14,157 bases of DNA from a virus, in IMG/VR virus record IMGVR_UViG_3300050506_000139, positions 1 through 14,157 of that record; one strand, written 5' to 3'. Positions 570 to 14,157 of the stretch are shown one piece after another; the stretch's first letter is position 1, and each line of letters opens with the position of its first letter. A model generated the notes under the pieces. The model was not told the DNA's origin. It saw only the letters and a program-made list of their open reading frames with translations, and ran no database searches. A program made the position numbers and the translations under genes.

Positions 570-1172
570 TCAGTCTCGGATTTCTCGGATTTCTTTTAGC
601 CAGGCGGCAATCAGATTCTCGGTCAATACCGGACGCGGTGTGATCTTCTTTCCGCCATCAAGCACCCTGCGCACAGTCCGCGGATCTATGCCGAGCTCAT
701 CAGCGATTATCTCAGATGCCTTCCCGAGCGTGAGCCCCTTGGTCTGTCGCGGTTCGTGGCCGGGAGGGTAGCACTTCGGTCGTCGAGGCCGGTTGTCTAC
801 GAGATCGTCGAGCCGGCTATATATGTGTTCCTGTCTTTTTGCGAGCTGCCATGCGTCGCCACGACCGGGCCACAGGCGTTTCCCCTCGGCTCTGACTTCA
901 TTCTCGAGCCGGCGAGTCTCGGACTTGTCCGCGTCCATTTCAAGAAGGTTCGCATCGAAGGCCTGGACCAGTTCCATCAAGCGAGTGGCTTCGTCCCGAA
1001 GAAAGTCACGACACTCTAGAAGCGATGGGAATCGGTTTTTACGTCTGGGCAACTGCTCCGCGTCCTTCCCGCATCGCTTAAGAGAAACCGGGCAGGGCGC
1101 CGAGGACGCGGCGACCGGCGCCCACACAGCGGGGATCAACCACTGCGTTGCCCGACATGGATACTCTACCAT
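570..1172 (-). CDS. Regulatory protein with coiled-coil middle and C-terminal HTH (DPRTVRR motif); start uncertain
   Basis: The C-terminus LGKASEIIADELGIDPRTVRRVLDGGKKITPRP repeats the motif of the next gene. ATG at 1172 has no clear RBS and internal ATGs (for example 977) are possible. First gene of the leftward operon, divergent from 1371 (+). Confidence 0.5.
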   Translation of the reverse strand: MVEYPCRATQWLIPAVWAPVAASSAPCPVSLKRCGKDAEQLPRRKNRFPSLLECRDFLRDEATRLMELVQAFDANLLEMDADKSETRRLENEVRAEGKRLWPGRGDAWQLAKRQEHIYSRLDDLVDNRPRRPKCYPPGHEPRQTKGLTLGKASEIIADELGIDPRTVRRVLDGGKKITPRPVLTENLIAAWLKEIREIRD

Positions 1173-1370
1173 GCAGCTCTGACACGACGTGTGCTAGCCT
1201 GACATCTGCGTTCGCAGAAAACTCCGCGCGGGATCGGCATTGCTGGGGTTTTTGCCCCCTGAACGAGTGCACCTGATTGCGATCCCAGCTGCACGTCGTC
1301 ATCATTCGGCCGGAACTACCCACGGGCCGAGTACATTGATCCATCGACCTAGCACATCTCTGGAGCATAG

Positions 1371-2153
1371 ATGAAGCGATTAACAACGATCCTTCTGTCC
1401 TCGCTCGCCGCTATTTCTACTACCATTGTCGGTCTCAGTCGCGTCGATATTCCAAGAGGATTCTGGGGCGAAAAGAGAGTTCTGATCATCTTAGCGATCG
1501 CGTATCTTGGTATCCACGCTTTCGCGCAGCCGATAGTAAAAGATGTCAAAGAACGCATGACGAGTCGAAGCGTGCGGCGGCGAGAGGACATCACTGAATT
1601 GCTTATTGGGGCGCTTAGCAACATCGCCGACCAAACGGGTCTCGATTGGAGGCAGCTTGGTGTCCACGTTTTTCTCGTCAAAACCAAATGGCGTTGGCCC
1701 TTCCGAAAAGCCTGGTGGCCGCTCCGCAATCCGCGGGAGCAGGTCCAATATCAGGTTTCTCGTTTTAAGATCGCGAGGCATCCGCCGTCATCGGGCATTC
1801 GATGGACAAAGGGCAAGGGCGCCATAGGAGACTGCTGGGAGAAGCAGGTGCCGATCTCAGCAAATCTATACCGGGACTTTGCGCCCTATGCGAAGTTAAC
1901 GGCACAAGAGTGGGACGGGTTGGATCGCGACGTTCGGTATGGGCTGAGCTTTGATGAGTTTCGCAGAGTGAAAGATTACGGAGGGGCAATCGTTGTTACA
2001 CCAATCAAAAAGGCGGACGACACGACCAAGTACATTGGGTGCGTGAGTGCGGATTCGCCCGGCGATTCCTTACAAAGACTCGATAACCCCAGCGTTTTTG
2101 AAGTCCTTCAGGGTGTGGCAAAAACCACCGCCACGCTCTTGTCACGGCGGTAG
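1371..2153 (+). CDS. Membrane protein with two N-terminal TM helices and a GAF-like C-terminal domain; candidate cargo
   Basis: ATG with GGAG 5 nt upstream. Two hydrophobic helices (ILLSSLAAISTTIVGL, VLIILAIAYLGIHAFA). The C-terminal pattern LGVHVFLV...RF...IRWTKGKGAIGDCW...GGAIVVTPI...YIGCVSADS resembles the GAF/GAF_2 core (G.G..G ... vPl ... iGvl..ds). Opposite strand to most genes and more A/T-rich by eye. Confidence 0.6.
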   Translation: MKRLTTILLSSLAAISTTIVGLSRVDIPRGFWGEKRVLIILAIAYLGIHAFAQPIVKDVKERMTSRSVRRREDITELLIGALSNIADQTGLDWRQLGVHVFLVKTKWRWPFRKAWWPLRNPREQVQYQVSRFKIARHPPSSGIRWTKGKGAIGDCWEKQVPISANLYRDFAPYAKLTAQEWDGLDRDVRYGLSFDEFRRVKDYGGAIVVTPIKKADDTTKYIGCVSADSPGDSLQRLDNPSVFEVLQGVAKTTATLLSRR

Positions 2154-2178
2154 GGTATACTTATGAATTAGGTGACGG

Positions 2179-2370
2179 ATGCCTAGCCAAACCAGAAAAC
2201 TGGTCAAGCAGACCGTAGTCACGGAGCAGTTTCTTGAGACGTTGGAGCAACTTCACGTGAGCGAAAAGGTCGTCGAGGCGGCAAAGCGCGCGCTCGAGAG
2301 ACCGTCGACCGACGAGGAAACAAAGCTTCCACCCCGAAGCCACCCGGGGCGGGTACGCCGCTCAACGTAA
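2179..2370 (+). CDS. Small helical hypothetical protein
   Basis: 63-aa ORF 25 nt downstream of the membrane GAF-like gene, on the same strand, with AGGTGA just upstream of the ATG. No recognisable motif. Confidence 0.3.
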   Translation: MPSQTRKLVKQTVVTEQFLETLEQLHVSEKVVEAAKRALERPSTDEETKLPPRSHPGRVRRST

Positions 2371-2536
2371 GATCTCTGCCCGTCCGCTTCCGCTACAACG
2401 GCCATATGGAGCTCGGTATGGTCGGCGCGTCACCTCCGACAATCTCATGTCTGTGTGTTAGGGCGCCTGGCTGAGCGATCCCTTGTGGTCATCGGCGCTT
2501 GTCGGCGACCGAAGACATGACGCAACTCATTGTAAT

Positions 2537-2577
2537 GCTTAGAAGGCCTGTGCTCTATCCAGCTGAGCTACGGGAGC
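2537..2577 (-). other. Truncated tRNA-Arg(UCU): 5' half only (acceptor 5' strand, D-arm, anticodon stem 5' strand and loop); candidate attP identity block
   Basis: The minus strand reads GCTCCCG TA GCTC AGCTGGATA GAGC A CAGGC CTTCTAA GC. This is a canonical acceptor, D stem-loop and anticodon loop with anticodon TCT. Similarity ends 2 nt after the loop. No T-arm or 3' acceptor strand was found downstream. It starts 7 nt after the integrase stop. Confidence 0.75.
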
Positions 2578-2584
2578 AATGTCG

Positions 2585-3886
2585 TCAAACCTTACCTAAT
2601 CGTTCAGCTATCTGCAACGCGACGCCGGCGTCATCCGTGGCCGTGTCGGCTTCCATATGGTGTCTGGTATGGTCGTCGGCCATCTGCTGCCGTCGGGCCT
2701 GGTCCATGCTGGCGATGTCGGCGGGCAGCTTGGGCGCGAAGCTGAGGCGCGCCACCTGCGCCGAGAGGCGCGCGGGCATCGCATGCGCGTAGCGCTCGAC
2801 CTGGCTCATGGACTTCCACCGCCCCAGCTCCCTGAGCTCCACCGGATGCGTCCCCTCGGCTGCCAGGAGCGTTGCGAACGCATGGCGCAAAGCGTGGTTG
2901 TAGTGCTGCGGGACGTGAACGCCGGCCGCTACCAGCAGGTCCTTGACCTTCCGCATATCGTGCGGGTTGACCGCGCGGGCACCCTTCCCGCGCGCCCGCG
3001 GCATCGCGATAACCAACCCGTCTTTCGTCGCCGGGCACTTTTCTCGCCATTGCCGAAGCATCACCACCAGCTCCGGATTAGCCGGCACGGTCTTGACCTC
3101 CTCGTTCTTGGTGGTCGTCGCCCAGGACCGCGCCACGGTGATAAGGCCCCGCTCCAGGTCGCAATCGATCCAGCGTAGACCGCAAATCTCCCCGAGTCGC
3201 AGGCCCAAATACGCGCCGAGGGCAACGGCCGGCTTCAGATAACCGATGCCCATGGTCTCCGCGGTGGCTAGCATCTTCTCGAGCTCCCCGGCCGTGTAGT
3301 AGTCGGGCTTGCCGAGTTGGACCGATGGCCGCTCCACCTCGGCCGTGGGGTTCTCGCACGTGATGATGCCTTCCTTGCGAGCCCAGCGGTACATCCGGGA
3401 GATGACCTTCAAGACGTGAACCACGGTCTGCTTGGAACGCTTCGAAAGGATGTCATCGCGCAGCCGCTCCACATCCTTACGCGTGACATCGCTGGCGAGC
3501 TTCTGGCCGAGGGCCGGCAAGATGTAGTGCGTAAACTTGGAGCGCGCGAAGGCGCGGTATTTCTCCAGGTCTTTGATCCGTGGCCGAGAGTATTCGGCGA
3601 GAAAGCGATCGGCGACCTGATTCACGGTAAGCGCCACAGGCGCAGGCGCAGGCGGCTTCGGCTCTGGTAACCCTTTTCGAATGCGATCGGCTCGGGCCTC
3701 TGCCTCGCGTTCCAGCCGAGCGCCTCCATCCCGGGCTTGCGCCATGCTCTCGATCGCGTGCCCGTCGCCATCGGTGAGTAAAAGCTTGCTGTTTCGGCGC
3801 AGCTCGCCCTGCGCATCGACCTCGAGCAGCCCTTCAGCGTAGTAGCGCCAGCCCTTGCGTGTCTTCCGTCTGAATACGTAGGCCAT
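2585..3886 (-). CDS. int: Tyrosine recombinase / phage integrase
   Basis: Catalytic signature present: R in GLRLGEICGL, HALRHAF (H-x-x-R), GRWKS, and catalytic Tyr in VERYAH. N-terminal SAM-like core-binding region (VNQVADRFLAEY). ATG at 3886 is preceded by AAGGAGG. The track start at 3889 is a TTG one codon upstream. Confidence 0.92.
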   Translation of the reverse strand: MAYVFRRKTRKGWRYYAEGLLEVDAQGELRRNSKLLLTDGDGHAIESMAQARDGGARLEREAEARADRIRKGLPEPKPPAPAPVALTVNQVADRFLAEYSRPRIKDLEKYRAFARSKFTHYILPALGQKLASDVTRKDVERLRDDILSKRSKQTVVHVLKVISRMYRWARKEGIITCENPTAEVERPSVQLGKPDYYTAGELEKMLATAETMGIGYLKPAVALGAYLGLRLGEICGLRWIDCDLERGLITVARSWATTTKNEEVKTVPANPELVVMLRQWREKCPATKDGLVIAMPRARGKGARAVNPHDMRKVKDLLVAAGVHVPQHYNHALRHAFATLLAAEGTHPVELRELGRWKSMSQVERYAHAMPARLSAQVARLSFAPKLPADIASMDQARRQQMADDHTRHHMEADTATDDAGVALQIAERLGKV

Positions 3887-5262
3887 CAATCCTCCTTTTC
3901 TCGGCTACTCAACCCACTGCAGTTGAACCGAGGCGAATGCCTGCCTGAACGAACGCGCCGATGGTGTAGTCGTCGCATTGGAGAGTAAAATCGCCGGCGG
4001 ATCGGAATGTGAATCGTGGGGGTTTGGCTATGGCCGGGATGAGTCGCGGACGGAAGGCATTCAACGTTATCGGCGGCTTGGTGTTGATCGCGATGGCCGT
4101 GGCGGTCGTGGCGATCAGAGAGATGAAACAAGAGCCGGTACCGCGTCCCGCTTCTGTCACTCCGCCCCAAGCCGCTCCGTCCCTTTCCACGACAAATGCA
4201 CCAGGACAGCAGCCTCCCCCTTCTGATCCCAATGCTCCTATAGATACCAAAAACCTGGGCGCCTCGATCGCGCAAGAGTTGAAAAGCCTCAGCGCGACGT
4301 ATGCGAGCGAAGGCCCCCCCGGCAAGTACGCCGACCTGATTGATTCGGGGCTTTCGATCGATACAAGAGCAATTCTGGACGTGGCCGAGAAGGGCGCCGA
4401 GAACGCTCGGACGATTACATACTCCCATTTGAAGAAGGATGCGGACCGTTACGCCGGAAAGCCGTTTGTCTTTAGCGGACCGATCCTTGAAATACAAGAG
4501 GCGAAGGGGCAGCTCGTTGCTCGAATCAACCAAGGAAGCTATAGCGAACGCCCGATCTGGGTGGCAGCCACGTTTAACACCGAATTCATCGACGGGAAAT
4601 ATGTCGACGTGATTGGATACTTGGCAGGTTCTTACAGCTATACATCGCAAGCCGGTTGGAACATAACGATCCCTTCTGTCTTCGCTATAGCAATGACCAA
4701 AAACGGGAATCTCGCCAGGGCCCGAGCGCTCCGAAGCGGAAAGCGCTTGCGGCGCAGCGAAGACGAGGAGTGAAATCACGAAACAGTCCTCCTCTCTCGG
4801 CTCAGCAAACGCCATCTGTTCTGCATTCGAGGCGGCTTCCATGATTTCGTGGACCCGCGCCTGCGATGCCGCGAGGTCGCGTTCGAGGGTGTCTATGCGG
4901 GACCGGTCGGCCTGCGACGCGGCCAGCGCTTCGTGGCACATGTCTTTCAGTTCGGAGACCCGCGCCTTGGTGGTGTTAGCCGCGCGTGCATGGCCCCCTG
5001 CGACATCGACCAGCCGCGCATTCTCTCCCTCCAAGCGCTCGCGGTCCCGCTCCAGCTCGGCGACCCGCGCCGCTAATTGCTCGCATTCGGCTTCGGCGCT
5101 GTTCATTTCGCGTTCGAGCTGGTCACGCCACCGATCGCGTTCGGCGCGGGCCTCATCGCGCTCGCGTTCTAGCTCGGCGACCCGCGCGCGTAGGCGGTCG
5201 ATGATTTCCGCGTCAGCTTTCACGCCGGCAAGGTCGGAGATTCTTTCCTTGTGCCAGCTCAT
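3886..5262 (-). CDS. Coiled-coil protein; only the first 155 or so codons (5262 to about 4800) look coding, and the frame then stays open to 3886
   Basis: ATG at 5262 overlaps the upstream stop (ATGA). The N-terminus is heptad-like with an internal duplication (ARVAELERERDEA / ARVAELERDRERLE). Beyond about 4800 the translation is antisense to 4009-4773 and looks non-protein-like. The first in-frame stop is at 3886-3888, overlapping the int ATG (TGATG). Confidence 0.45.
   Translation of the reverse strand: MSWHKERISDLAGVKADAEIIDRLRARVAELERERDEARAERDRWRDQLEREMNSAEAECEQLAARVAELERDRERLEGENARLVDVAGGHARAANTTKARVSELKDMCHEALAASQADRSRIDTLERDLAASQARVHEIMEAASNAEQMAFAEPREEDCFVISLLVFAAPQALSASERSGPGEIPVFGHCYSEDRRDRYVPTGLRCIAVRTCQVSNHVDIFPVDEFGVKRGCHPDRAFAIASLVDSSNELPLRLLYFKDRSAKDKRLSGVTVRILLQMGVCNRPSVLGALLGHVQNCSCIDRKPRINQVGVLAGGAFARIRRAEAFQLLRDRGAQVFGIYRSIGIRRGRLLSWCICRGKGRSGLGRSDRSGTRYRLLFHLSDRHDRHGHRDQHQAADNVECLPSATHPGHSQTPTIHIPIRRRFYSPMRRLHHRRVRSGRHSPRFNCSGLSSREKED
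4009..4773 (+). CDS. Signal-anchored or secreted protein with Pro-rich linker and globular C-terminal domain; function unknown
   Basis: N-terminal basic stretch plus hydrophobic helix (RGRKAFNVIGGLVLIAMAVAVVAI), a P/S/T/Q-rich linker, then ordinary globular composition rich in K, I, Y, F and N. Start is GTG 4009, ATG 4030 or ATG 4039. The opposite-strand frame here is R/C/H/S-rich junk. Confidence 0.6.
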   Translation: MNRGGLAMAGMSRGRKAFNVIGGLVLIAMAVAVVAIREMKQEPVPRPASVTPPQAAPSLSTTNAPGQQPPPSDPNAPIDTKNLGASIAQELKSLSATYASEGPPGKYADLIDSGLSIDTRAILDVAEKGAENARTITYSHLKKDADRYAGKPFVFSGPILEIQEAKGQLVARINQGSYSERPIWVAATFNTEFIDGKYVDVIGYLAGSYSYTSQAGWNITIPSVFAIAMTKNGNLARARALRSGKRLRRSEDEE

Positions 5263-5621: not shown

Positions 5622-6020
5622 TTACAAACCAGCGTCACGCAGACGTGCATTGATCGCCGGGAGTGTCTGCCATGCCGGATCGCAGTGATCGCAATCGTCG
5701 CGCCCCAAGTGGCCGAGATGAGAGTGCATCAACTCGTGTGCATAGGCTGACGCGTCGAAGCTGCCCGGCCAAAAGAGCTCCACGCAATCGCAATGGCTGA
5801 AATAGAGCCCTTGGTACTGGTGGCCGTCCTTAGGGTCCGTGACAAGACCGGCGTCCCATTGCACCAACGGCGCGGGATCCGTTTCGTCCATCATCTGGTT
5901 CCATGTGATGGCCTCGGCCTCGCACTGCCTCGGCTGCCCATGTTCGCAATCGACCGGAGTTCCCGAGGGACCGTAATAGCACCCGCCGACGAACAGGAGA
6001 AGCATGAGCGCTCGCCGCAT
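5622..6020 (-). CDS. Cys-rich lipoprotein with HExxH motif (putative small zinc metallopeptidase-like)
   Basis: From the ATG at 6020 the protein begins MRRALMLLLFVGGC, a signal peptide plus lipobox-like VGGC. The mature part has 8 Cys and AYAHELMHSHLGH. The track ORF starts upstream at 6128. Confidence 0.6.
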   Translation of the reverse strand: MRRALMLLLFVGGCYYGPSGTPVDCEHGQPRQCEAEAITWNQMMDETDPAPLVQWDAGLVTDPKDGHQYQGLYFSHCDCVELFWPGSFDASAYAHELMHSHLGHLGRDDCDHCDPAWQTLPAINARLRDAGL

Positions 6021-6202
6021 CAGGCCACCAACCGCGCCAACGTGGAACAGCACCGAGTGCAGTTGCGCAACTCTGCCGCCGCTTCGCCATCGATTGCCTG
6101 CATCCCCACGTAAGGCAGTGCCTGCCATGCGACCTCATCGATCTTCAGCGCCTCATGCGTTTCACGCGAACACATCAGATACACCTCTCCCTTTGCGGCC
6201 AT
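6020..6202 (-). CDS. Small hypothetical protein
   Basis: 60-aa ORF with ATG at 6202. Its stop overlaps the lipoprotein ATG (TGATG). Weak RBS and no motif. Confidence 0.3.
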   Translation of the reverse strand: MAAKGEVYLMCSRETHEALKIDEVAWQALPYVGMQAIDGEAAAELRNCTRCCSTLARLVA

Positions 6203-8224: not shown

Positions 8225-9193
8225 CTAGCTTCCCAGCAATTGCACGATCGTGCCCGCAGACCCGGACGCTCCGTTGGTGCCGCCATTGGTTCCTGTGCCA
8301 CCCGCACCACCGCTAACGGTTGGGGCCGTACCGATCGCCGAGCTCATGGTTGTGAGCAAGATTCCACCACCACCGCCACCACCACCGCCACCGCTGCTGC
8401 TATTGCTGCCCGTGCCAGCGCCATTACCGCCGGCACCGCCGTTTGCGGTGATAGAACCGGAATTCGAAATCTGTACTGCAGCGATGACTATGATGCCACC
8501 GCCTGCCCCGCCTCCGCCACCTTCACCACCGGTACCACCCCCGAAAACAGCTCCGCCACCCCCACCGCCAGATCCGCCCTTTAGACTTACCAATGCAGAT
8601 GCGCCAACGATAGCGCCCAGCGTTGCCATTGGATTCGCTCGGTATCCTCCGGCGCTGGCAGAAGGGGCAGTTGCCGCTCCGCCTGCACCTCCGGTATCTG
8701 GTGCACCGATTGCGGAGTCGCCTCCGTTCCCACCAACGCCACCGATCTGATTAGATCCCCCGGCGCCGCCGGACGCTCCGGCTCCGGTTCCATTTGATCC
8801 CGCACCGCCTGCCGATCCTGAAAGTAACGACCCAGCCGCACCCGCAGTGCCACCAGCGCCGCCGTTGGATCCTGCTACTGCGTTGGCCCCGGCATTACCT
8901 GCAACTGAGATGATCCCACCAGATGCAATCGAGAGTAGTTGGGATACGTAGATGCGGAAACCGGCCGGCTTTAGTACACCTGTGCTACTGATTGTAAGAT
9001 TGCGGTAATACATATCCCGCGTGAGGGTCGTCGTTCCACCGGTGATAGTGACGTCGCCGTCGCTGCCATCACCAAATATGCCGCTTCCGCCGATCAAGCC
9101 GTTAATATCGTCTTGAACGGTTTGTCCCCATGTTGGCGTGAAAACAGTTCCGTTAAGCCAGGTAGCGGGCGAAGTAATCTTTCCGATCGCCAT
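8225..9193 (-). CDS. Glycine-rich beta-helix-like protein, putative fibre / receptor-binding protein
   Basis: The N-terminus reads FGDGSDGDVTITGGTTTLTRDMYYRNLTISSTGVLKPAGFRIYV. It is followed by long G/A/S/N/T repeats (GGAGG, GNGG) and a run of 10 Gly. This resembles phage fibre-like glycine-rich proteins from memory. The plus-strand Pro-rich ORF 8250-8750 is its mirror. Confidence 0.6.
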   Translation of the reverse strand: MAIGKITSPATWLNGTVFTPTWGQTVQDDINGLIGGSGIFGDGSDGDVTITGGTTTLTRDMYYRNLTISSTGVLKPAGFRIYVSQLLSIASGGIISVAGNAGANAVAGSNGGAGGTAGAAGSLLSGSAGGAGSNGTGAGASGGAGGSNQIGGVGGNGGDSAIGAPDTGGAGGAATAPSASAGGYRANPMATLGAIVGASALVSLKGGSGGGGGGAVFGGGTGGEGGGGGAGGGIIVIAAVQISNSGSITANGGAGGNGAGTGSNSSSGGGGGGGGGGILLTTMSSAIGTAPTVSGGAGGTGTNGGTNGASGSAGTIVQLLGS

Positions 9194-13423: not shown

Positions 13424-14036
13424 CGGTGAGTTTCAGGGCGCCAACGCCGGATCCATTCGTACTCTTGATCTTGTTAGTGCTCGTGCTCGTGATCGTGCTC
13501 GTGATCGTGGCGCTACTTGAAGCCGTTTTGGCAACGGTGGTTGGCAACGACGGTTGGCAATCAGGGTTGGCAACCCGCTTGGCGTCCGCGATGGCGTCCG
13601 CGAAGATCTCATGGAAGATTGCCCGCAGGTCGCGATGCGCACCTCTGGTCAGTTTCTTGGCCTTGAACGTTGCCATGAACTTGTCTGCGGCTAGCAGGGC
13701 TTCGCTGCGGAGACGACAATCCGGCAGCTCGTCGTAGACCTCGCGCCAGAGCTGAATTGTCTTCGGGCTGGTAGGTGCGTTGTCCGCCATCGCCTCCGGT
13801 AGCCACACCAGCGGCGCGGACCAGTCCGCCTTGACGAATCCCGCGCGCTCCAGCTCACCGAAGCATTGCAAAAACGCGCCGAGGTCCCATGCAAGCGATT
13901 CCGCCAAACCGGCGCGGCCAGCGGAGAACAATCCAGGCAGCGCTCGGCGATGAGGACCGGTCAGCAAGTACAAATGAAGCAGCCGTGCATTGGGCGCGGG
14001 CGCCGGGAGGGACCGAAAACGCCGGTCCTGCCACAT
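13377..14036 (-). CDS. Replication-organiser-like (winged-helix) protein with S/T-rich linker; start uncertain
   Basis: From the ATG at 14036 the protein begins MWQDRRFRSLPAPAPNARLLHLYLLTGPHR...PGLF. This resembles the N-terminal pattern of phage replication-organiser / DnaD-like proteins, and it sits directly upstream of the DnaC-like gene. The track start (TTG 14126) would overlap the wrapped Xis-like gene. Confidence 0.45.
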   Translation of the reverse strand: MWQDRRFRSLPAPAPNARLLHLYLLTGPHRRALPGLFSAGRAGLAESLAWDLGAFLQCFGELERAGFVKADWSAPLVWLPEAMADNAPTSPKTIQLWREVYDELPDCRLRSEALLAADKFMATFKAKKLTRGAHRDLRAIFHEIFADAIADAKRVANPDCQPSLPTTVAKTASSSATITSTITSTSTNKIKSTNGSGVGALKLTDDRDYGPAGEQAIDD

Positions 14037-14157
14037 GCGAGAGCAAATGCGCCCGAAGAGCGGGGTCACGCGTCGTCCCCCGTCCTTTCGCGCGACAAGT
14101 AGGCATGCAGGTCTGCGCGTCGCCAACGGCGGTGGCTGCCGAGCTTCGACGCCAAGC
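14031..14157. repeat. Terminal direct repeat, copy 2 (identical to 1-127)
   Basis: Same comparison as copy 1. An exact end overlap is the usual signature of a circular contig from a de Bruijn assembler; true terminal redundancy is the alternative. Confidence 0.97.

Follow-up and report, generated by a model that had tools for sequence, protein, structure and literature searches.

What does a pair of small genes do for its carrier when it sits beside the attachment (att) site of an integrative element and is transcribed against the element's other genes? The question is raised by the window analysed here, the whole 14,157-nucleotide (nt) stretch of IMG/VR virus record IMGVR_UViG_3300050506_000139, in which an earlier note, made from the sequence alone, had pointed to a membrane-anchored GAF-like protein followed by a small open reading frame (ORF) as a candidate defence or abortive-infection module. 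Here, we describe these two genes (hereafter gene A and gene B), report that they recur together across phyla as a compact cassette, and weigh the readings of its function, of which we tentatively favour an autonomous, mobile two-gene module of the toxin-antitoxin or abortive-infection type.

Both ORFs are present exactly as the earlier note had drawn them (Table 1), and both were called independently on a second assembly of the element (L001; ENA ERZ27257709 k141_3992555). Gene A encodes 260 amino acids (aa) and gene B 63 aa, each from an ATG start, and gene B begins 25 nt past the end of gene A. Shine-Dalgarno-like motifs precede the two start codons, GGAG lying 6 nt upstream of the ATG at 1371 and AGGTGA 5 nt upstream of the ATG at 2179. 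The guanine-plus-cytosine (GC) content is 0.543 over positions 1371–2370 against 0.608 for the rest of the window, a modest but real dip, and the neighbouring features comprise an integrase gene, an attP core copied from half a tRNA, and flanking repeats. The cassette is att-proximal, opposite-strand, lower-GC cargo, as had been proposed, and lower GC content, opposite strand and divergence from the other genes are typical of cargo expressed in the lysogen. A promoter scan of the divergent region upstream of gene A found no sigma-70 consensus, so it is the gene arrangement that points to a promoter there.

Hydropathy analysis of the gene A protein (Kyte-Doolittle, 19-residue window) gave peaks of 1.83 at residues 4–22 and 2.01 at residues 37–56, in agreement with the two N-terminal transmembrane (TM) helices that had been expected of it. 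Applying the positive-inside rule, we found that the N-terminus and the 20 residues after TM2 are richer in Lys and Arg than the ~14-residue loop between the helices in 73 of 73 relatives, which indicates an N-in/C-in topology and places the globular domain in the cytoplasm. An AlphaFold2 (AF2) model built on a 33-sequence alignment (predicted local distance difference test score, pLDDT, 92.4; predicted template modelling score, pTM, 0.83) extends TM2 as a single long helix (residues 36–89) into an alpha/beta domain composed of strands b1 (97–105) and b2 (124–133), a helix (150–158), strand b3 (162–165), lid helices (166–201), strands b4 (206–213) and b5 (221–229), and a final helix (240–258). 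The criterion for a GAF fold was a central antiparallel beta-sheet with the N- and C-terminal helices packed on one face and a pocket closed by a helical or loop lid on the other, and at the level of the predicted fold the gene A domain belongs to the GAF superfamily.

Structural comparison with Foldseek bore out the GAF-like fold that had been suspected. Against PDB it returned 30 matches at E ≤ 1e-3, nearly all of them GAF or IclR-type GAF-like ligand-binding domains with a probability of 1.0, and GAF domains were the top matches. They include Nlh2 (4g3v), fRMsr (1f5m, 3ksg, 3mmh and 1vhm), IclR ligand-binding domains and PixJ; the highest TMt was 0.71 (2qyb). Matches of cyclic-nucleotide type were also returned (Lcd1-cAMP, PDE2A, PDE5A and CyaB2). 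A further match was to T4 holin T, whose soluble domain is bound to antiholin RI in the structure (6pxe_F, E 2e-3, TMt 0.56). Among viral models (BFVD), uncultured phages supplied full-length proteins of TM-helix-GAF design that, together with annotated T-type holins, made up the best matches.

The sequence of gene A leads to a large family. The Pfam GAF model gave no match to the gene A protein even at E ≤ 1, which leaves it outside Pfam GAF and GAF_2, and weak matches were found among its relatives (GAF in 6 of 73, best 8e-4; GAF_2 in 3 of 73, best 4.5e-5). A word-indexed search with the single protein recovered only itself and one relative, with which it shares 32% identity. When 1.8 billion cluster representatives were searched exhaustively with a profile, 821 proteins matched at E ≤ 1e-3, of which 466 did so at E ≤ 1e-10; nearly all are 230–280 aa long and align end to end. 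The number of matches and their uniform length indicate a large family with a single architecture, amounting to ~800 clusters at 50% identity. Its members are unannotated and, where named at all, are called 'hypothetical protein'. They come mainly from Actinomycetota and Acidobacteriota, within a patchy spread at ~30% identity across Actinomycetota, Acidobacteriota, Thermodesulfobacteriota and Chloroflexota. Searches with tblastn found no family match among PLSDB plasmids and a single uncultured record among INPHARED phages, the same one with two different family queries, so at the sensitivity of tblastn the family is not common in cultured phages or plasmids.

Conservation within the family is highest in the canonical GAF pocket motifs, WTKGKGxIGxCW, ..PI.. 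and GCVSxD (GCxSxD), and the invariant or near-invariant residues are W145, K149, G150, G153, C155, W181, A209, P211, G223, D228 and A250. The three segments WTKGKGAIGDCW, AIVVTPI and YIGCVSADS, from which the GAF reading had originally started, are the top-conserved positions of a real protein family, a correspondence far beyond chance. The family profile also weakly matches fRMsr of S. aureus (3ksg, E 0.019) and Nlh1 (4g3w, E 0.034) at two classical GAF motifs.

A membrane anchor joined to a ligand-binding domain is the layout of nucleotide-activated defence effectors, and the earlier note had considered an orphan effector that answers a signal made elsewhere. The GAF domain would then bind a cyclic (oligo)nucleotide from a cyclic oligonucleotide-based antiphage signalling system (CBASS), Pycsar or type III CRISPR cyclase encoded at another locus, and the TM helices would disrupt the membrane. 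Some GAF domains do bind cAMP or cGMP, and the structural matches to Lcd1-cAMP, PDE2A, PDE5A and CyaB2 fit this idea. However, the gene records show no cyclase in the element, as the earlier note had seen, and no CD-NTase; neither recurs among the 132 proteins encoded within three genes of the cassette at 24 loci, and the companion that is constant is instead a 60-aa protein. The PADLOC effector models give no match, and the nearest GAF matches at the sequence level are of fRMsr/Nlh type rather than of the cyclic nucleotide monophosphate (cNMP) type. The NKFDE motif is the signature of cNMP-binding phosphodiesterase (PDE) GAF domains; a motif of this type (N-K...F-x3-D-E) is absent from the gene A protein, which has no 'NK' dipeptide. 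We give the orphan-effector explanation very little credence.

Gene B, which might have been a mere add-on, proved to be the constant companion of gene A. We surveyed 35 loci through the GAF protein, located in part with an 11-sequence family alignment and drawn from metagenomes, 21 species genomes, three IMG/VR contigs and one GenBank phage record. In most of them a same-strand ORF of 48–92 aa lies 2–41 nt past the GAF stop codon, and on the retrieved contigs of homologues, which are independent assemblies, a gene of 53–77 aa was called directly downstream each time. These small ORFs share the core motif [YF][LIV]ExL[RK]x[LVI]..[SP]..[VIL][ILV]..[AI]E. A hidden Markov model (HMM) of 16 clear partners scored four more loci, with 9.9–17.2 bits at 63–143 nt downstream of the GAF stop; the best control score was 7.5 bits in ~1 million residues from the same loci. 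By this HMM a homologous mini-protein is present in 20 of 34 assessable loci, and by position and pattern in ~30 of 34. The linkage also holds in reverse: 13 mini-proteins were retrieved by a profile search that started from the small protein, and all three new loci reached in this way carry a GAF gene of the family 23–24 nt upstream of the small gene (E 1e-74 to 1e-79). Judged from this co-occurrence in sequence, gene B appears to be the obligate partner of gene A and its sole conserved partner across phyla, a result that tells against the single-gene sensor-effector entertained earlier. Two adjacent co-oriented genes, strict co-occurrence and a mobile or variable context make up the generic gene layout of type II toxin-antitoxin systems, and all three are found here.

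The gene B protein has a disordered basic N-terminus, a helix(16–24)-loop-helix(29–40) core with the sequence FLETLEQL-HVSE-KVVEAAKRAL, and a disordered tail; its AF2 model shows two short helices with disordered tails (pLDDT 67). The helices are acidic or neutral and so do not suggest DNA binding. Ahead of the helical core, several partners (L006, L007, L008 and L011) carry an N-terminal motif [ST][FL]R[ST][AS]x[P], in the variants TLRTAEP, TLRTAKP, TFRTSEP and TFRSATP, which the copy in the window lacks; this motif may act as a degron or mark a site of cleavage or phosphorylation. Two Streptomyces loci (L016, 8805–10645, and L017, 8766–10642) have a GAF-family gene and no small downstream partner. 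In both, a GmrSD_N (DUF262) protein ends 6–12 nt ahead of the GAF gene, and here either the partner may have been swapped or a restriction system may have recruited the membrane GAF protein.

A membrane protein with a GAF-like domain and a small helical partner also calls to mind a holin-antiholin pair, similar to T and RI of phage T4, that would serve the element's own lysis. The structural match to the T4 complex and to phage models annotated 'T holin' or 'holin' favours this explanation, and the rest of the window shows no recognisable holin or endolysin. Against it, the topology is opposite to that of T, which has one TM helix and a periplasmic domain where the gene A protein has two TM helices and a cytoplasmic domain, and no Pfam holin model matches. 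The cassette is transcribed divergently from the element's other, minus-strand genes, its homologues are mostly in non-phage loci, and in the prophage locus L035 it adjoins a separate multi-TM holin-like ORF and a 317-aa ORF, neither with a Pfam match. A role in the element's lysis is therefore, in our judgement, highly unlikely.

The neighbourhoods of the homologous loci share little beyond the two genes. Among the 132 neighbouring proteins, the commonest Pfam family was seen three times. There is no conserved third gene upstream, where ORFs are common only to near-identical genomes, except for GmrSD_N in the two Streptomyces loci. As no other neighbour is conserved, the two-gene unit is autonomous. 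We found no conserved housekeeping synteny, and many loci lie at the edges of integrative elements or prophages or beside defence genes. The earlier note had named a structure unlike GAF and conserved housekeeping contexts as outcomes that would count against its proposal; with a GAF-like structure and non-housekeeping neighbourhoods, the proposal holds on both points.

Several loci place the cassette at the edge of a mobile element. Locus L005 repeats the layout of the window, with the cassette convergent with an integrase gene, and adds an HTH_17 gene. In Streptomyces chartreusis (L032), the two genes are the final pair of an element encoding SSB, DNA methylase, Prim-Pol, DUF3631, excisionase and integrase, and it lies 314 nt from a tRNA-Arg, after which housekeeping genes follow. 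In GenBank record MT835568 it occupies a prophage edge, between host comEA/comEC-like genes and phage holin-like and lysin-like ORFs, and it is found at the contig end in two of the three IMG/VR proviruses. L002 opens with the 3' end of a tRNA 155 nt upstream. Overall, a tRNA or tRNA fragment lies within 1 kb in 7 of 38 loci. This count leaves out the 'tRNA-Arg(tct)' that ARAGORN reported beside the cassette in L030, which looks spurious and is unrelated to the att core of the window.

In at least 8 of the 35 loci, the immediate neighbourhood includes defence genes; the GmrSD_N proteins of L016 and L017 are among them. Hhe/PDC-S37-type helicase-nucleases adjoin the cassette in L008 and L011, the GAF gene of L017 lies just downstream of SspBCD (its neighbour being SspC, with SspB and SspD), and L020 has a mad8/SspH-like protein. 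In L003 the neighbours are AbiJ_NTD4/Abi_C, an nSTAND NTPase and an IS3 transposase; in L004 they are an N6_N4 methyltransferase and DUF87.

The att-proximal position could also be that of a superinfection-exclusion gene, in which case a prophage inner-membrane protein and its partner would block DNA entry or an early membrane step without killing the cell. Many exclusion genes resemble gene A: they encode an inner-membrane protein, lie at the end of a prophage on the strand opposite to the other genes, and have a lowered GC content. In addition, the position is equally att-proximal in L005, L032 and L035. However, nearly all of the protein mass is cytoplasmic, with an external loop of only ~14 residues, and the cassette is also found outside prophages, in restriction, Ssp and Hhe islands. 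This explanation also leaves the obligate soluble partner and the conserved GAF pocket unaccounted for, and we hold it to be improbable.

The conserved pocket is better served by a membrane-bound small-molecule sensor with no role in conflict, whose GAF domain would bind a metabolite and signal to the soluble partner in the manner of an anti-sigma factor or anti-adaptor, releasing or sequestering it and so tuning the physiology of the host, with the element carrying the pair as cargo of lysogenic conversion. Consistent with this, the invariant and near-invariant residues fall in the canonical ligand-pocket motifs, TM2 is prolonged by a long stalk helix, a feature of signalling proteins, the chromosomal loci L033, L034 and L036 adjoin two-component systems or extracytoplasmic function (ECF) sigma factors, and no PADLOC model recognises either protein. 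On the other hand, there is no output domain and no conserved regulator or target gene nearby, and the partner has neither DNA-binding nor sigma-like features. The patchy spread at ~30% identity over four phyla and the repeated placement at the edges of mobile genetic elements and beside defence systems are likewise at odds with a plain sensor, which we regard as unlikely.

The reading that we favour is a toxin-antitoxin or abortive-infection-type module, which the precedents of toxFtsL(D9) with PanA and of T4 holin T with RI make the most economical one, and which we put forward tentatively. It builds on the gene structure, topology and fold of gene A, the size of its family, the strict linkage of A and B, and variable neighbourhoods rich in mobile elements and defence genes; what we infer in addition is that A and B bind each other, that A is toxic, that a trigger releases it and that the outcome is anti-phage. 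In such a mechanism, the gene B protein would bind the GAF or stalk part of A and hold it inactive, in the manner of an antitoxin or antiholin. Loss or displacement of B, or binding of a trigger in the GAF pocket, would release A, with phage infection, shut-off of host expression and loss of the element as candidate triggers. Active A might then harm the membrane and cell envelope or the divisome, leading to cell arrest or death. Such a cell would abort the infection or exclude competing phages, the element would be stabilised by addiction, or both would follow.

A number of observations weigh against this reading. Neither protein has a significant match in Pfam, NCBIfam, PHROGs or PADLOC, the last being the check that the earlier note had recommended (PADLOC-DB v2.0.0 models gave 0 matches for the 260-aa protein, and the best for gene B, PDC-S63 at E 0.032, is insignificant). 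Unlike classical type II antitoxins, the gene B protein carries no DNA-binding signature. Conservation of the GAF pocket is strong and points to the sensing of a small molecule, for which a plain toxin-antitoxin model has no need. A minority of loci (L006, L033, L034 and L036) look like ordinary chromosome, among two-component systems, ECF sigma factors and metabolic genes, and the fraction of loci with defence neighbours, ~23% within three genes on either side, is a raw value, uncorrected for genome-wide background.

A more far-reaching reading holds that the cassette is a previously unrecognised, widespread two-gene immunity or conflict system (the ~800 clusters, mainly in Actinomycetota and Acidobacteriota). 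In it, a phage cue or small molecule would be sensed by the cytoplasmic GAF domain at its membrane anchor, the ~60-aa helical hairpin would gate that domain, and its activation would act on the membrane or divisome to arrest the cell, the partner having been swapped in Streptomyces for a GmrSD_N/Ssp restriction context. We consider this extended proposal possible but doubtful.

Table 1. Coordinates of the cassette and of the neighbouring features in the window.
Feature	Position (nt)	Strand	Evidence or remark
HTH-like proteins (HTH, helix-turn-helix)	326–520 and 570–1172	-	weak HTH_23/HTH_29/IS21-type matches
Divergent intergenic region	1173–1370		between HTH-protein ORF 570–1172(-) and cassette; presumed promoter/operator
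Gene A, inner-membrane GAF protein	1371–2153	+	ORF, Shine-Dalgarno motif, hydropathy, AF2, Foldseek, conservation
Gene A TM1	1380–1436 (aa 4–22)	+	hydropathy
Gene A TM2	1479–1538 (aa 37–56)	+	hydropathy
Gene A cytoplasmic stalk helix (TM2 continuation to aa 89)	1539–1637	+	AF2 model
Gene A GAF domain	1638–2150 (aa ~90–260)	+	AF2 model, Foldseek
Gene B, soluble partner protein	2179–2370	+	ORF, Shine-Dalgarno motif, homologous ORFs, AF2
Direct repeat, left copy, 26 nt, CCATATGGAGCTCGGTATGGTCGGCG	2402–2427	+	repeat search; flanks att core
attP core, 41-nt copy of tRNA-Arg(UCU) 5' half	2537–2577	-	read by eye
Tyrosine integrase, convergent with cassette across attP	2585–3889	-	Pfam Phage_integrase 3.7e-19, Phage_int_M 6.7e-8
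Direct repeat, right copy, 26 nt, 81% identical	2653–2678	+	inside 3' end of int

The attP core begins 8 nt past the integrase stop codon and spans the acceptor arm, D arm, 5' anticodon stem and anticodon loop (CTTCTAA), ending 2 nt beyond the loop. ARAGORN found no complete tRNA in the window and Rfam no RNA family, because the core is half a tRNA and both tools need a whole one. This attP holds the 5' half of the tRNA, unlike the usual 3' part. Integration would rebuild the tRNA from the phage-supplied 5' half beside int, and the GAF cassette would end up at the opposite prophage end. The 26-nt repeat CCATATGGAGCTCGGTATGGTCGGCG is a candidate arm-type site of the integrase.

The ends of the window are identical over 127 nt (1–127 and 14031–14157), and the 14,159-nt assembly L001, with a 141-nt overlap of its own, is a circular permutation of the window; together these indicate that the source is a circular element of ~14.0 kb. 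It encodes an integrase, a large terminase, and DnaC-like and DnaD-like loaders, and no capsid, portal or tail protein is recognisable among its genes. It may represent either the satellite of a phage or a temperate phage that is divergent and very small.

On L001 the independent gene call places all genes other than the cassette on the minus strand. The statement that the only plus-strand genes are those of the cassette and 4009–4773 accordingly stands for the cassette and falters at 4009–4773, where the L001 caller prefers an antisense ORF of 458 aa, 3886–5262(-). The minus-strand ORF fully overlaps the 254-aa plus-strand ORF; it has a coiled-coil N-terminus, and the remainder is Cys/Arg-rich and implausible. 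The plus-strand ORF has a PHROG match (phrog_26645, 3.3e-14), an N-terminal TM segment and a GC content that is likewise lowered, at 0.567. Probably one call is wrong over 4009–4773, or the antisense overlap there is genuine.

The earlier note had also remarked that the cassette occupies the slot in which a phage repressor is usually found. A role as phage repressor is unlikely, because the cassette also occurs far from any phage; the weak HTH matches belong to the proteins on the divergent strand and not to the cassette. These two proteins, across the divergent region from gene A, share the HTH-like motif DPRTV[KR]R[ML]L[SD]G and are candidate element regulators or excisionase.

Two further minus-strand genes encode proteins with no family match. 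The 322-aa product of 8225–9193 consists, over its C-terminal two thirds, of glycine-rich repeats (GGAGG or GGxGG runs) and might be a fibre or receptor-binding protein. The 168-aa product of 5622–6128 bears a HELMH motif of zinc-metallopeptidase type and an internal hydrophobic, lipobox-like segment, LLLFVGGC, which is a signal peptide if translation begins at an internal Met; this protein could be a lysis or envelope-acting enzyme.

GAF is among the commonest small-molecule sensor folds, and yet we know of hardly any documented role for it in phage defence or toxin-antitoxin biology; to our knowledge, toxFtsL(D9) is the sole validated membrane-anchored GAF toxin. We found no paper on a system that pairs a two-TM GAF protein with a mini-protein. 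Should the cassette be a conflict module, a large family for which Pfam, PADLOC, PHROG and NCBIfam have no model would join the catalogue of defence and toxin-antitoxin systems, concentrated in Actinomycetota and Acidobacteriota, phyla with under-explored defence systems. It would be a compact system (260 aa plus 63 aa) in which to study the coupling of a ligand-binding domain to lethal activity at the membrane or divisome, and small integrative elements would gain a practical marker of their att-proximal cargo. Should it be a plain sensor, it is still a new conserved pair of membrane sensor and mini-protein. In either case, though it will hardly startle specialists, the cassette offers a candidate that is clean, compact and open to testing, in phyla that are under-explored.

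Among known systems, the nucleotide-activated TM defence effectors, such as Cam1 and Csx23 of type III CRISPR systems, resemble gene A in fusing TM helices to a cytoplasmic ligand-binding domain. The TM effectors of CBASS and Pycsar likewise combine TM helices with a ligand-binding domain. The sensors in these effectors are SAVED, CARF, cNMP-binding or similar domains rather than GAF, and a cyclase is co-encoded, whereas the cassette has no linked cyclase and has a small protein partner instead.

Soluble GAF proteins of the fRMsr, Nlh1 and Nlh2 type are the best matches by both profile and fold, and they share the motifs GKGVxG and vPI..g..iGvl.D.P with the gene A family. The Cys of GKGVCG in fRMsr is Ile in the gene A family (GKGVIG), which therefore lacks this one of the catalytic cysteines of fRMsr. 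The matches to fRMsr and Nlh lie far below family thresholds, and the gene A family is set apart by a membrane anchor and by invariant cysteines of its own, Cys155/Cys224.

The likeness to T4 holin T is that of a membrane-anchored protein with a GAF-like globular domain and a small partner. Antiholin RI is reported to bind the globular domain of T and to inhibit the holin (PDB 6pxe; PMC11413866). The likeness is at the level of fold only: the Pfam scan gave no sequence-family match between T and gene A, and the cassette lies outside a lysis module and, in most of its occurrences, outside phages.

The closest precedent in overall design is toxFtsL(D9) of Gelidibacter mesophilus, a 281-aa protein composed of an N-terminal TM region, a long helix and a GAF domain and predicted to dimerise at the membrane (Ernits et al. 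2023, PNAS; PMC10440598). In E. coli it causes delayed growth arrest, filamentation, delocalisation of FtsZ and later lysis, with no depolarisation, and it is neutralised by its adjacent cognate antitoxin PanA (PMC10440598). The cassette shares with toxFtsL(D9):PanA both the TM-helix-GAF architecture and the two-gene module, a comparison made from the published description of the toxin (WP_027127282.1). The two systems differ in partner and in host range. PanA is a Panacea-domain protein, of which there is no match on record for any gene of the element, whereas the partner here is an unrelated ~60-aa helix-loop-helix protein without a Pfam match; and the host of toxFtsL(D9) belongs to Bacteroidota, whereas the gene A family is found mainly in Actinomycetota and Acidobacteriota. 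Placed among these systems, gene A is best rated as a candidate membrane-anchored GAF effector with a new mini-protein partner, from a large family that lies outside current annotation resources.

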